This document shows positions 37,201 through 40,331 of a stretch of 64,000 nucleotides of DNA, piece by piece. Both the position numbers and the translations under genes were made by a program. The stretch's first letter is position 1; the number at the start of each line of letters is the position of its first letter. Origin of the DNA: Candidatus Thorarchaeota archaeon (GTDB lineage Archaea > Asgardarchaeota > Thorarchaeia > Thorarchaeales > Thorarchaeaceae); contig JBHLRZ010000019.1 of the NCBI GenBank assembly GCA_048882045.1, positions 1 to 64,000 on the forward strand, in the 5' to 3' direction. Below the pieces are notes generated by a model. It saw only the letters and a list, made by a program, of their open reading frames with translations. It was not told the DNA's origin and ran no database searches.

Positions 37201-37318
37201 TGGTGCGGAGGGCGAGATTTGAATTTGCGCTCCGAGTCGAATTGGCTCGGGGGCTCGCGAACTCCTACGAGACTAGGCCCTCAACCTAGCGCCTTTAACC
37301 TGGCTGGGCAACCTCCGC
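37201..37318 (-). tRNA. tRNA-Leu(GAG) with 30-nt intron at position 53/54 (37224-37253)
   Basis: Removing CCCCCGAGCCAATTCGACTCGGAGCGCAAA restores a canonical long-variable-arm tRNA-Leu with GCGAG-TTCAAAT-CTCGC T arm and CCA. Confidence 0.9.
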
Positions 37319-37406
37319 ATGTAAGAGTCCATCTCATGAGGGCTATTTTCAGTCCTCATGGATACCTGTGATAAGGATTTCTATACGATTAGAACAGAAG
37401 GAGTAA

Positions 37407-37530
37407 GGAACAGAGGATGTCACTCCGCGTGACTGTCCAATCTGTTCAAGTTTCGAACTACCTCGCTTACCTAGTAGTTCCAGCCAGCCATTCAAATAGA
37501 CCTGGCTTTGAAGCCCTAATGGGGGCTTTC
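37407..37530 (+). ncRNA. Candidate four-hairpin small RNA (~125 nt)
   Basis: Four tandem stems; G-U pairs favour the + strand; TATA-like TTTCTATA ~25 nt upstream; long T-rich tract downstream. Confidence 0.55.
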
Positions 37531-37623
37531 TTTGATTTCTTGTGATCTTTCATTTTCTTTTCACCTTATTCTTCAGATTTTCATCTAATTTGCTTAAAAC
37601 TATGGGAACCTGCACAAGAAAAA

Positions 37624-37719
37624 TGGAGTTCCGGGCGGGATTCGAAATCGTGAGTCATGGTATAGATGTCCATGAGGTCCCGCGACCACCAGCCTACAAA
37701 GCTGACGCGATAACCTTTA
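37624..37719 (-). pseudogene. Degenerate tRNA-Thr remnant (TGT), lacking 5' acceptor strand, with 32-nt intron-like insert at 53/54
   Basis: Direct repeat of most of tRNA-Thr 39184-39259 with ~6 substitutions plus insert 37647-37678. Confidence 0.85.
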
Positions 37720-37767
37720 TGGTCTTATCCAATTCCTTATCTATAAATCAACAAGAAATTAACAATC

Positions 37768-38625
37768 ATGAATTCCATTGAGTTGTCAAGAGATACGCTA
37801 GTACGGATTACAGTCTTTGTTTTGATCTACACATCATTTGGACTGCTTATTCCAATTCAGGGATATCTTTCCCTGAGTTTTGCTGTTGGAATGGTAATCA
37901 CCGCTGTTCTCTATGCCTTTGCTTTGTACTACATGAATACGAAAATTCCTTTGGGAAGAAAGTTTCGGATATTGATAACATGGATTGCTGTTTATGTTAT
38001 CCAGATGCTTAATCCAGTTCTAGAAGGCATCTTTTTCACAACCCAATTTGAAGGGCAACCAGAGTTAGCATTCGGCGCTGTTGTCTTTGGACTGGTTCTT
38101 ACACTACCAACAGCACTAGTAGCAGGAGTTCTGTTCAACCCAGAAGGAACAATCTCAAGCTTTGGCCAACTCAGAAAGGAATACTTGGGAAACTGGACCC
38201 CCTCACAGTTTGTTGTACGATTCATCATTGCGTCTATGCTTTGGTTAGTCATTTACTATACAATTGGAACCATAATTGCACCCTTAGTACTTCCGTACTA
38301 CACTGGTGGCAGCGTGGGTTACGACTTGGCCCTCCCTGCGGTCGAGATTGTAATCATACTTCAGACAGTTCGAGGATTCATCTATGTCACTAGTGTTCTC
38401 CCGATTGTAATATCAGTGAAGCTAGACAGGAAGTCACTAGCAATCATACTAGTTGCACTTCTTTACATTGCAGGTGCTTTGGCTGTCTTTGTCATATCTG
38501 ACCAATTTCCAGTCTTCTTGCGAATTGTTCATGGGATTGAATTGTTTGTTGATTCATTAATTGCAGGTGTCGTGATCGCCTTTCTTTTAGGAAAACCAGA
38601 AGAATTACTTCCTAGCCCAGAGTGA
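37768..38625 (+). CDS. Polytopic membrane protein, unknown function
   Basis: 285-aa ORF with about 8 hydrophobic segments, two-fold internal repeat appearance. Confidence 0.75.
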   Translation: MNSIELSRDTLVRITVFVLIYTSFGLLIPIQGYLSLSFAVGMVITAVLYAFALYYMNTKIPLGRKFRILITWIAVYVIQMLNPVLEGIFFTTQFEGQPELAFGAVVFGLVLTLPTALVAGVLFNPEGTISSFGQLRKEYLGNWTPSQFVVRFIIASMLWLVIYYTIGTIIAPLVLPYYTGGSVGYDLALPAVEIVIILQTVRGFIYVTSVLPIVISVKLDRKSLAIILVALLYIAGALAVFVISDQFPVFLRIVHGIELFVDSLIAGVVIAFLLGKPEELLPSPE

Positions 38626-38640
38626 GTTGAGGTCGTTTTC

Positions 38641-39183
38641 ATGCGTGTACTTGAATCTATTCAGAGAAGGTCCTCTCTGCGAAATCTCATTCTTATGATA
38701 ATCTCGAGCTTCGTCATTGTGATGGTCATGGCTATGTTGACTCAAATTTTGGTCTATGATGTCTATGCTGATGTCACAATGCCTGACACACGATTTTCAT
38801 ATTCGATTAATGAAATTACGGATGTGTTTGACACATTAGGTCAGGAAGGCTTATTCGCATGGACTCAAGCACATATGCTTGATTTTCTGTTTCCACTTAC
38901 CTATATGTTTGCACTCGCATTTGGAATAAATCTGGAACTCAGAAACTCATATCCTGACGATACCAGAGCGAAGTTCTTGGTACTCTTTCCGTTGTTCGGA
39001 GGAATCATGGACTATGTCGAGAACATTTTGGTGCTGACACAGATTGCCTCATACCCACTACTTTCTGAATCCGTAATTATCATTGCCAGTACTATCACAT
39101 CTTTGAAGTGGATTCTTTTAGGAGCTGGCTTTGTTATTGTCTTTGCACTGATTCCAATAATGCTCTACAGAAAGAAGAAGTAA
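38641..39183 (+). CDS. 4-TM membrane protein, unknown function
   Basis: MPDTRFSYS...LDFLFPLTY...DYVEN...LKW pattern typical of a widespread uncharacterised membrane family. Confidence 0.75.
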   Translation: MRVLESIQRRSSLRNLILMIISSFVIVMVMAMLTQILVYDVYADVTMPDTRFSYSINEITDVFDTLGQEGLFAWTQAHMLDFLFPLTYMFALAFGINLELRNSYPDDTRAKFLVLFPLFGGIMDYVENILVLTQIASYPLLSESVIIIASTITSLKWILLGAGFVIVFALIPIMLYRKKK

Positions 39184-39259
39184 TGGAGCCCCGGGCGGGA
39201 TTCGAACCCGCGACCACCAGCTTACGAAGCTGACGCTATAACCTCTAAGCCACCGAGGC
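39184..39259 (-). tRNA. tRNA-Thr(CGT), intronless, CCA encoded
   Basis: GCCTCGG...TCAGC TT CGT AA GCTGG...GGTTCGAATCC...CCGGGGCTCCA. Confidence 0.95.
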
Positions 39260-39338
39260 TTGGCTAAGCGCTCACCTCTAGAATTCTCTAATAAAACTTT
39301 ATCATGGAACCAGTTGCTAGAACAGTGGAGGTCTCACA

Positions 39339-40331
39339 TTGAAGACTGGAGAGATGGGTGAACGCGATTTTCTTGCAAAGATCAGTAGTTTTGTCGATAC
39401 ACCAGAAGGTGCTATACTGGGATTTGATGATGATGCCTCAGACGTCCCTGTTTCAGACATTAACAATCTGGTAATCAATGTTGACACGTTTGTACGAAAG
39501 ACCGACTGGCTACCTGGAATGACACCAGCTCAGGTCGGTCGAAAGACAGCCGTCATGGCACTGAGTGATCTTGCAGCAAAAGGAGTAAAGCCCATAGCAA
39601 TTATGCTCTCGCTCTGTGTACCTGAGGACTACGATGTTGAGGATGCAAGTGAGCTGGTTCGAGGATTCGCACACTACAGTCTCAAGTCTGGCATTCCTTA
39701 CCTAGGAGGAGATGTAGGGATGTGTGACGATGTAGTCCTCACAGGAGTTGCTTTCGGTTTGGCACCATCCACTGATATAGTGCCTCGAAGTGGCGCAAAG
39801 AATGGAGACGTAGTTGCTGTAACAGGATTATTTGGTCTGACTTCTGTTGCATTCGAAATACTGATTCGAGGAAAACAAGATGAGTCCGATTTACATTCAG
39901 ATGCACTGGCTGCTGTGTATCGACCTAAAATCGAGAGTGATTTTGTTTCATTATTGAATGAAATTGGAGCTGCCACCTCCTGTATGGATAGCAGTGATGG
40001 TTTGGGGATAACATTACATACTCTGGCTAAGATGAGCAATTGTGGGATTGTTGTGCATGATCTGCCAATTGCTCCTGGAGTCGAAGATTTCTGTAAACAC
40101 AACAACCTAGACATAACGAAGACTGTGATGCAAGGAGGCGAGGAATTTCTTCTTGTACTTACTATCCCTTCTGAGAAATTTGATGATGCTCTCCATCTTG
40201 CAAAGGAGAAGAAAGTGTTTCTGAAGAGAATTGGTACAGTCACTCTCGAAAAACAAGTAGTTCTTGAATCCGAAGATGGTCCGATATCCATTCCATTTAG
40301 AGGATACGACAATTTCAAGGAATGGGAGTAG
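39339..40331 (+). CDS. thiL: Thiamine-monophosphate kinase
   Basis: GFDDDA, SDLAAKG, LGGD, MDSSDGL, GGEEFLL. Confidence 0.93.
   Translation: MKTGEMGERDFLAKISSFVDTPEGAILGFDDDASDVPVSDINNLVINVDTFVRKTDWLPGMTPAQVGRKTAVMALSDLAAKGVKPIAIMLSLCVPEDYDVEDASELVRGFAHYSLKSGIPYLGGDVGMCDDVVLTGVAFGLAPSTDIVPRSGAKNGDVVAVTGLFGLTSVAFEILIRGKQDESDLHSDALAAVYRPKIESDFVSLLNEIGAATSCMDSSDGLGITLHTLAKMSNCGIVVHDLPIAPGVEDFCKHNNLDITKTVMQGGEEFLLVLTIPSEKFDDALHLAKEKKVFLKRIGTVTLEKQVVLESEDGPISIPFRGYDNFKEWE

Follow-up and report, generated by a model that had tools for sequence, protein, structure and literature searches.

A decayed tRNA-Thr copy retains a T-arm intron that is absent from the working gene across two inserted genes in a Thorarchaeota genome

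The DNA analysed here, hereafter the window, is a 64-kb stretch of contig JBHLRZ010000019.1 from a Candidatus Thorarchaeota archaeon whose genome (G000) comprises 3.6 Mb in 93 contigs, with 44% GC. It contains two copies of tRNA-Thr(CGU), one complete and one partial, at the two ends of an insert with two genes; the partial copy, which we call the remnant, carries 32 additional nucleotides (nt) in its T-arm. Positions given without a contig label refer to the window, and G numbers other than G000 designate relatives. The two copies and the flank of the remnant are composed as follows; the intron types are defined further below.

39184..39259, minus strand: working tRNA-Thr(CGU), intronless, with encoded CCA (ARAGORN; Rfam 66.7 bits).
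37679..37716, minus strand: 5' exon part of the remnant, tRNA nt 16-53, anticodon TGT (blastn, 35/38 to the working gene).
37647..37678, minus strand: type-A intron of the remnant, 32 nt at position 53/54, with a decayed splice motif (homology to introns of intact genes).
37624..37646, minus strand: 3' exon part of the remnant, nt 54-76, with acceptor GG>AA (match to the working gene; the ancestral trailer TTTTTCTTGTGCAGGTT comes next).
37319..37623, no strand: native spacer between tRNA-Thr and tRNA-Leu (conserved across the genus; marks the ancestral tRNA-Thr 3' end).

The remnant as a whole (37624-37716, minus strand) is a copy of nt 16-76 of tRNA-Thr(CGU) and lies about 1.5 kb downstream of the working gene in the direction of the tRNA. 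When the whole genome was searched with blastn, nt 16-53 aligned with 37716-37679 at 35 of 38 positions (E 5e-8) and nt 54-69 with 37646-37631 at all 16, or at 23 of 25 positions when the alignment was extended through the CCA. The 32 nt between these two blocks (37678-37647) have no counterpart in the intact gene, and their position at 53/54 is unambiguous because neither end of the insert repeats a flanking base. Once 37647-37678 is excised, the remnant aligns to the intact gene without gaps, and a canonical T-arm and the mature tRNA sequence are restored. The exons carry five substitutions, namely A23>C, C34>T, which creates the TGT anticodon, A38>G, and the GG>AA change in the 3' strand of the acceptor, which reads CCGGAAC instead of the CCGGGGC of the intact gene. 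Nucleotides 1-15 are missing: ahead of the copy there is no 5' acceptor or D-stem strand, but weak similarity possibly extends to about nt 11. The remnant received no tRNA call from Rfam, while the intact tRNA-Thr scores 66.7 bits.

Much of this had been described in an earlier note made from the sequence alone, and its description holds. Direct reading and blastn confirmed a partial duplicate with a TGT anticodon, an altered acceptor 3' strand and no 5' acceptor strand; reading and alignment likewise placed a 32-nt hairpin insert (CATGG/CCATG) exactly at 53/54. The junction resembling a bulge-helix-bulge (BHB) motif, CGCG...CACG, is present as described, and the neighbouring tRNA-Leu does have an intron at the same position, 30 nt long and unrelated in sequence. 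The possibility of a misassembly, which the note had left standing, can be set aside. Logan contigs from the runs of two studies span the spacer, the remnant and the first inserted gene (X1 record 4, 37276-38466; X4 record 17, 37267-38106), and another (X1 record 7, 38522-39400) spans both inserted genes and tRNA-Thr, with 0-1 differences at the junctions; one of the runs is possibly the assembly's own source. Because contigs from the runs of two studies bridge both junctions, the arrangement is not an assembly artefact.

The orthologous locus, in which an AIR-synthase-like gene is followed by tRNA-Thr(CGU), the conserved spacer and tRNA-Leu(GAG), was compared in about 25 species of one genus, 24 of which were scored for the intron state of tRNA-Thr(CGU). 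They divide as follows.

Type A, a 32-nt intron at 53/54 of the intact tRNA-Thr(CGU): G011, G012, G014, G017, G042.
Type B, a 30-nt variant at 53/54 of the intact tRNA-Thr(CGU): G001, G003, G007, G008, G013, G024.
Type C, a 30-nt intron inside the T-loop of tRNA-Thr(CGU): G010, G015.
Intronless tRNA-Thr(CGU): 11 genomes, G000 included.

A 53/54 intron in the tRNA-Thr of relatives, which the earlier note had suggested looking for, is therefore found in 11 intact orthologues, five of type A and six of type B, and such introns also occur in the tRNA-Thr(CGU) of other genera of the family. The insert of the remnant is identical at 22-25 of 32 positions to the type-A introns of the intact genes (G011, G014, G042, G017, G012), which are identical to each other at 24-28 of 32. 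Type C and the T-loop intron found in the tRNA-Leu of G002, G024 and G008 are homologous. Every one of the 11 genes with a 53/54 intron pairs exon nt 48-51 with intron positions n-5 to n-2 in a 4-bp helix, and three of them show a compensatory change from C-G to U-A. The minimum-energy fold of the G014 precursor consists of this 4-bp helix, a 3-nt bulge that holds the 5' splice site, and an 8-bp inner helix. A BHB or relaxed helix-bulge-helix motif (4-bp helix, 3-nt bulges) can be drawn for all 11 intact orthologues and cannot be drawn for the remnant. Because the central helix pairs in all 11, with compensatory changes, we consider the splice motif of the intact orthologues to be under selection. 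The insert is accordingly a member of a genuine archaeal intron family, one predicted to be removed by the tRNA splicing endonuclease EndA. Two homologues of the catalytic domain of this enzyme are encoded in G000, in the regions C1:40864-41118 and C2:5421-5681, which fits the broad-specificity heterotetramer, a type that cleaves relaxed, non-canonical motifs (EndA types and the heterotetrameric form are reviewed in PMC5829648).

G000 has many other intron-bearing tRNA genes. At C2:192173-192312, where ARAGORN calls tRNA-Gly(tcc) in error, lies a tRNA-Thr(GGU) with two introns. The first, of 30 nt, interrupts the anticodon stem on its 3' strand and includes a CUGAUGA motif similar to a C box; the second is a type-A intron of 32 nt at 53/54, identical to that of the remnant at 22 of 32 positions.

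Compared with these introns, that of the remnant has decayed. Its central helix contains an uncompensated C-A mismatch (CGCG vs CACG), the inner (h') helix is broken by the loss of two pairs, and the invariant AA before U54 reads AU, an A>T change in the 3' bulge. The fold is no better than that of shuffled sequence (z = +0.35). Since nt 1-15 and the promoter are absent, the remnant does not make up a complete gene either. By these signs it is a dead pseudogene and a decayed former member of the BHB intron class. The same arrangement exists in G002, with a remnant in the same place, in which the start of the intron, GACCTCATGG, is still visible and the rest has decayed. The remnant regions of the two genomes are 61% identical, against 48 +/- 2.5% for shuffles. 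Exon divergence between remnant and working gene is about 8% in G000, while the remnant of G002 is almost unrecognisable.

The flank of the remnant identifies the place that it occupies. The spacer at 37319-37623, though non-coding, keeps 72-79% identity in at least 15 congeners. An empty orthologous site, with tRNA-Thr followed by the spacer, is found in G018, G005, G012, G014, G011, G006, G020 and G043, and in relatives such as G018, G005, G012, G011, G020 and G006 the trailer TTTTTCTTGTGCAGGTT and the spacer were traced directly 3' of the intact tRNA-Thr at such a site. The working tRNA-Thr of G000 adjoins not the native trailer but the end of the second inserted gene, whose stop codon lies against its CCA. 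Since the trailer and spacer of the remnant directly follow the intact tRNA-Thr at empty sites, it is the remnant that sits at the ancestral position. It forms a repeat of the tRNA 3' part, in the same orientation, at the far end of the insert, and the intact gene stands at the near end.

The exons of the remnant also tell its allele. They combine the anticodon stem CAGCT/AGCTG, the variable loop GTGGT, the loop TTCGAAT and CCCGCCC, a signature that they have in common with the working gene and with G002, G018, G022 and G009, and that differs from the species in which type A is now present. The working gene itself is identical or almost identical to the intronless alleles of G018, G022, G009 and G002. 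As the remnant carries the allele signature of the working gene together with an intron, an intron-bearing gene of this allele must once have existed. The exons match neither the tRNA-Thr(UGU) nor the tRNA-Thr(GGU) of G000; the intact tRNA-Thr(UGU) at C2:11235-11310 differs from them in the anticodon arm, the T-arm and the acceptor.

The remaining features of the locus are the inserted genes and the neighbouring tRNA-Leu.

37720..37767, no strand: distal end of the gene 1 cassette, the upstream region of gene 1, with a TATA-like CTATAAAT.
37768..38625, plus strand: cassette gene 1, a predicted membrane protein of 285 aa (open reading frame without a Pfam or PHROG family).
38641..39183, plus strand: cassette gene 2, a predicted membrane protein of 180 aa (open reading frame without a Pfam family; its stop abuts the tRNA CCA).
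37201..37318, minus strand: tRNA-Leu(GAG) with its unrelated 30-nt intron at 53/54 (Rfam 33.1 bits; genus-wide comparison).

The insert between the two tRNA copies measures 1.46 kb. For neither protein was a family found in Pfam, PHROGs or the protein atlas, and no gene for an integrase or recombinase lies within the insert or beside it. In the comparison of G000 with G002, gene 1 has a dN/dS of 0.22 (dS 0.34, pS 0.28) and gene 2 of 0.12 (dS 0.89), values that indicate purifying selection on both, while the synonymous sites of a neighbouring core gene are saturated (pS 0.76). Homologues of gene 2 with about 70% nucleotide identity lie at other loci in G009, G014, G007 and G022, and the surroundings of the gene 1 homologue in G009 are devoid of tRNA repeats. 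Between the G002 homologues of gene 2 and gene 1 (L015, 2148-2176) lies a perfect copy, 29 nt long, of the tRNA-Thr 3' end, with 7 nt of trailer. G000 lacks this copy, and only 15 bp separate its two genes, which suggests a fusion that placed gene 2 in an operon with gene 1. Because the divergence of the two genes differs and G002 has a tRNA copy between them, the insert consists of two cassettes with separate histories, which have moved among species of the genus, and is not one element. What the earlier note called an integrative element is, in these terms, a pair of separately evolving single-gene cassettes without an integrase. A single ancient insertion inherited vertically by G000 and G002 was considered and rejected as the whole story, given a saturated core gene against dS values of 0.34 and 0.89, and remnants that have decayed unequally.

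The segment upstream of gene 1 (37720..37767) is 88% identical to that of G002, and identity falls from about 88% to about 50% exactly at the border between cassette and remnant. This drop, and the divergence of the remnants beyond the silent sites of gene 1, argue that the remnant did not travel with the cassette and that it belongs to the recipient chromosome. Each of the two remnants would then have an older or separate history of its own.

Insertions of this kind are common at the locus. Nearly all congeners have, after tRNA-Leu, one to three units of 0.3-1.3 kb, each with one open reading frame, usually antisense, and each ending with a copy of about 22 nt of the tRNA 3' end, from the T-loop (TCAAAT) to the CCA. 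The tRNA-Leu(GAG) of G000 has no cassettes downstream, in contrast to these relatives; the genome has cassette arrays at other tRNAs. Such units are attached to tRNA-Thr in G002, G003, G015/G008 and G024. The cassette genes of relatives are diverse, encoding GNAT acetyltransferase, PrcB_C, CxxCxxCC and JAB domains as well as membrane proteins, and no integrase was found among them at this locus.

One cassette product is a protein of 426 aa with three HTH repeats and two HNH motifs, encoded at L018:1195-2472 directly 3' of the tRNA-Thr(CGU) of G024. It matches an HNH endonuclease in PHROGs (E 5e-13) and nothing in a sequence search of PDB, and it may be a nuclease of the homing type whose targets are tRNA genes. 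The same cassette is probably present next to tRNA-Thr in G008, G015, G020 and G009, where the sequence directly downstream of the tRNA is similar, this similarity being the sole basis of the assignment. Matches obtained with tblastn were a homologue in another part of the G012 locus and, at the contig end of G006, a C-terminal portion. A homologue with 32% identity is encoded in G000 (C49:848-2062, minus strand), directly 3' of tRNA-Gln (C49:723-828). On the same contig, about 8.9 and 15.7 kb past this tRNA, are two copies of about 45 nt of the tRNA-Gln 3' part that start in the anticodon loop, the second of which ARAGORN calls tRNA-Lys(ttt). They look like the borders of classical, larger integrated elements, unlike the 22-nt repeats of the small cassettes.

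The comparison also bears on the idea, raised in the earlier note, that introns interfere with insertion; the idea finds no support at this locus. Cassettes follow intron-bearing genes for tRNA-Leu in G014, G018, G002 and G024, and for tRNA-Thr in G003, G024, G008 and G015; T-arm introns do not prevent cassette insertion here. An intron at 53/54 leaves the usual repeat intact, since that repeat begins immediately 3' of it, at nt 54/55. Displaced fragments that reach further 5' differ in intron state from the working gene, and always with the same polarity. This holds for the tRNA-Thr of G000 and G002, for the tRNA-Leu of G015, whose fragment starts inside the 53/54 intron while the working gene has only a variable-arm intron, and for the tRNA-Leu of G017, whose fragment keeps the last 7 nt of a 53/54 intron that the working gene lacks. 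The opposite polarity, a working gene with a 53/54 intron and a fragment without it, was not seen among the fragments reaching past nt 53. Breakpoints cluster at nt 53-55.

There are also 5' fragments that mirror the 3' fragments. Those of tRNA-Leu in G014 (L011, about 2133-2228, tRNA sense) and of tRNA-Thr(CGU) in G058 (L304) end at nt 53 or a few nt into an intron, and in each case a complete gene of another allele lies 70-130 nt downstream. Across loci L009-L028, tRNA-Leu(GAG) shows at least four intron positions in one genus (the start of the variable arm, before the T-stem, 53/54 and the T-loop), with two introns in G002 and G024 (148-149 nt) and none in G005 and G017 (88 nt). The tRNA-Thr(CGU) exons of the sisters G043 (L030) and G011 (L032) are identical, as is the type of flank downstream, but the 32-nt intron is precisely absent in G043; their branch lengths on the neighbouring AIR-synthase-like protein are 0.03 and 0.06. 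The turnover of T-arm introns is therefore judged to be fast and not always linked to cassettes. Losses were not counted on the single-gene tree of the AIR-synthase-like protein, which is poorly resolved in a clade of 13 species.

How did a genome come to hold an intronless working gene and an intron-bearing pseudogene of the same allele? The reading that we favour, with a probability of roughly 60%, is that the remnant is the native 3' part, since displaced, of a gene that once bore an intron, and that incoming DNA supplied the intronless 3' part now in use. The ancestral tRNA-Thr(CGU) of the lineage would have had a 32-nt type-A intron between nt 53 and 54. DNA with gene 1, later joined by gene 2, would have been inserted at this gene, bringing an intronless copy of at least nt 16-76, or a whole allele. 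A complete intronless gene would thus have been rebuilt beside the old promoter, and the former 3' part with its intron, a 96-nt element, would have been pushed 1.5 kb downstream with its native flank still attached. Relaxed selection on the fragment would then have allowed C34>T, the acceptor change GG>AA and the substitutions that break the splice motif. The DNA may have been joined through site-specific recombination by an enzyme encoded elsewhere. Alternatively, in a scenario that accommodates all of these observations, G000 may have imported the array by homologous recombination from a relative that already carried it. If the right-hand crossover lay between the point where the donor's old remnant begins and the tRNA of the recipient, the common starting position of the two remnants within the tRNA would be accounted for. 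With G000 exons about 8% diverged, a G002 remnant near the limit of recognition and a dS of 0.34 for gene 1, the event in G000 looks younger than the split of the two gene 1 lineages.

The earlier note had offered, as one of two origins, this combination of an ancestral intron and a swapped-in intronless part. It is the best supported of the readings, through the introns of orthologues, the allele type and the native flank; that intron removal and insertion were one event, and the manner in which the DNA was joined, we infer. Several observations weigh against a single swap. Precise presence and absence of the intron also occurs without a cassette, as in G043 and G011, and intronless alleles of the same type stand at empty sites in G018 and G022, so the working copy could have lost its intron after the insertion by another route. 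The orthologous remnant of G002 is far more decayed than that of G000, and the history therefore needs more than one event. Neither an integrase nor a recombination intermediate was found, and the predicted ancestor, an intact gene of this allele with a type-A intron, was not found in the genomes searched. A metagenome scan with a degenerate type-A pattern gave, among the matches listed (at least 120 stretches), three tRNA-Thr genes (L067, L071, L139), none of them the predicted ancestral allele, and a scan of a genome collection with a 17-mer across the exon/intron border gave only chance bacterial matches among those listed.

The second origin in the earlier note, a tRNA-Thr(UGU) gene, agrees with the TGT anticodon. 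We consider it very improbable, because the resident UGU gene differs from the fragment throughout, the fragment fits the CGU gene at the 35 of 38 and 23 of 25 positions given above, and TGT results from a single C>T transition among five substitutions of decay; the remnant of G002, moreover, decayed differently. It is just as hard to believe that the remnant functions as the 3' half of a split or permuted tRNA, with a separate 5' piece joined to it by trans-splicing. The BHB-like junction remains, and other archaea have split tRNAs broken at intron positions; against this stand a splice motif degraded relative to 11 intact genes, a mutated acceptor strand, an orthologue in G002 decayed almost beyond recognition and the presence of an intact tRNA-Thr(UGU) in G000. 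A pattern search for the 5' half gave chance matches only, and is a weak test, since a 5' half could be diverged.

Two further explanations were considered. The remnant may be the displaced native 3' part while the incoming DNA bore an intron itself or merely duplicated the gene; an ordinary process, for instance recombination with cDNA of the spliced tRNA or gene conversion from an intronless allele, would later have removed the intron from the working copy. A precise difference of this kind is seen between G043, which is intronless, and G011, which has type A, although their exons are identical and neither has a cassette; furthermore, 11 of the 24 scored congeners have no intron, and a long displaced fragment is missing in most of these. 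We nevertheless regard this course as unlikely, though far from negligible: it needs two events where one suffices, and the same polarity recurs at the tRNA-Leu of G015 and G017, with no opposite case among fragments past nt 53. Alternatively, the intron segment could have arrived with the mobile DNA, in an attP-like copy acquired from an earlier host, with a crossover 3' of the intron, and the host gene would never have had an intron. This is the mirror image of the model for Caldiarchaeum, where Sugahara et al. 2012 (PMC3293823) inferred an intron-containing attP for a tRNA-Thr gene, and crossovers 3' of the intron site are common here, as cassette repeats typically start at nt 54/55. It seems to us distinctly improbable, given that the remnant regions of G000 and G002 are only 61% identical against a pS of 0.28 for gene 1, that identity drops exactly at the border, and that the remnant exons carry the signature of the resident allele.

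Here one genome holds both states, a working intronless gene and a pseudogenised intron-bearing copy, and at the orthologous site of about 25 related species the intron is either absent or still alive, in one of three types. Gain and loss of archaeal tRNA introns are usually inferred from presence and absence among genomes alone; if displacement of the native, intron-bearing 3' part is the correct reading, the locus would show, with a date and a direction, the loss of an intron in connection with the insertion of DNA at a tRNA gene. We also put forward a broader proposal, speculative and more probably wrong than right: nt 53-55 may be the working site of a so far undescribed, integrase-free system of cassette insertion in Thorarchaeia, in which allele replacement linked to insertion drives the turnover of T-arm introns. 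The driver might be a trans-acting recombinase or the HTH-HNH endonuclease cassettes beside tRNA 3' ends. If this were true, allele replacement at insertions, and not precise deletion or retro-processing, would mainly account for the gain, loss and type-switching of T-arm introns, and 53/54 introns and cassette insertion would co-evolve at the same few nucleotides. The main value of the locus is as an entry point to intron turnover in the T-arm and to the cassette system at nt 53-55, and it is tractable for work on both this turnover and the mechanism of tRNA-anchored cassette arrays in Asgard archaea. A limited search found no literature on T-arm intron polymorphism in Thorarchaeota or on these arrays.

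Displaced tRNA fragments at insertion sites are familiar from integration by tyrosine integrases, in which the tRNA is regenerated and a 3' fragment displaced, both with elements of the SSV/pNOB8 type and in Islander-type islands. The present case differs from these in that no integrase adjoins the insert, which measures only 1.46 kb and consists of two cassettes of different divergence. It also differs from the other cassettes at this locus, with their repeats of about 22 nt from T-loop to CCA, in the unusual length of its repeat (nt 16-76). Compared with integron arrays, which have attC hairpins, IntI and attI, the repeats are tRNA 3' ends and not imperfect palindromes.

The introns resemble non-canonical BHB introns in being short hairpins at odd positions with a relaxed helix-bulge-helix motif, and in that one type occurs in different tRNAs (type A in tRNA-Thr(CGU) and tRNA-Thr(GGU), the T-loop type in tRNA-Thr and tRNA-Leu). 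Fujishima 2010 reportedly treated such introns and their turnover. Non-canonical BHB introns and their turnover in Thermoproteales are the subject of Sugahara 2008, as cited in PMC11291895, and other Asgard lineages have high intron loads at non-canonical positions (PMC11291895). Those studies of BHB introns derive gain and loss from presence and absence among genes, whereas here a pseudogenised copy keeps the lost intron in the same genome. The hypothesis of Randau and Soll 2008, that introns protect tRNA genes from integration, is reviewed in PMC4090602; at this locus, intron-bearing tRNA-Leu and tRNA-Thr genes still carry cassettes, a direct counter-example to the shielding of a tRNA gene by a T-arm intron.

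The case with which ours has most to be compared is the tRNA-Thr(GGU) of Caldiarchaeum subterraneum, for which a change of intron content through recombination between att copies with and without an intron was proposed (PMC3293823). In both, inserted DNA lies between a gene and a displaced fragment of it that does not agree with the gene in intron content. In Caldiarchaeum it is a 5' fragment that was displaced, the working gene gained an intron (at 24/25) and a recombinase is encoded by the insert of 1.8 kb; here the displaced piece is a 3' fragment, which keeps the intron, the working gene is intronless, the insert is without a recombinase, and the polarity is the opposite. The introns in the intact orthologues of many relatives here show, in addition, which state is ancestral. 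Read in this way, the Thorarchaeota locus would be the reciprocal of the one published insertion-linked intron gain.

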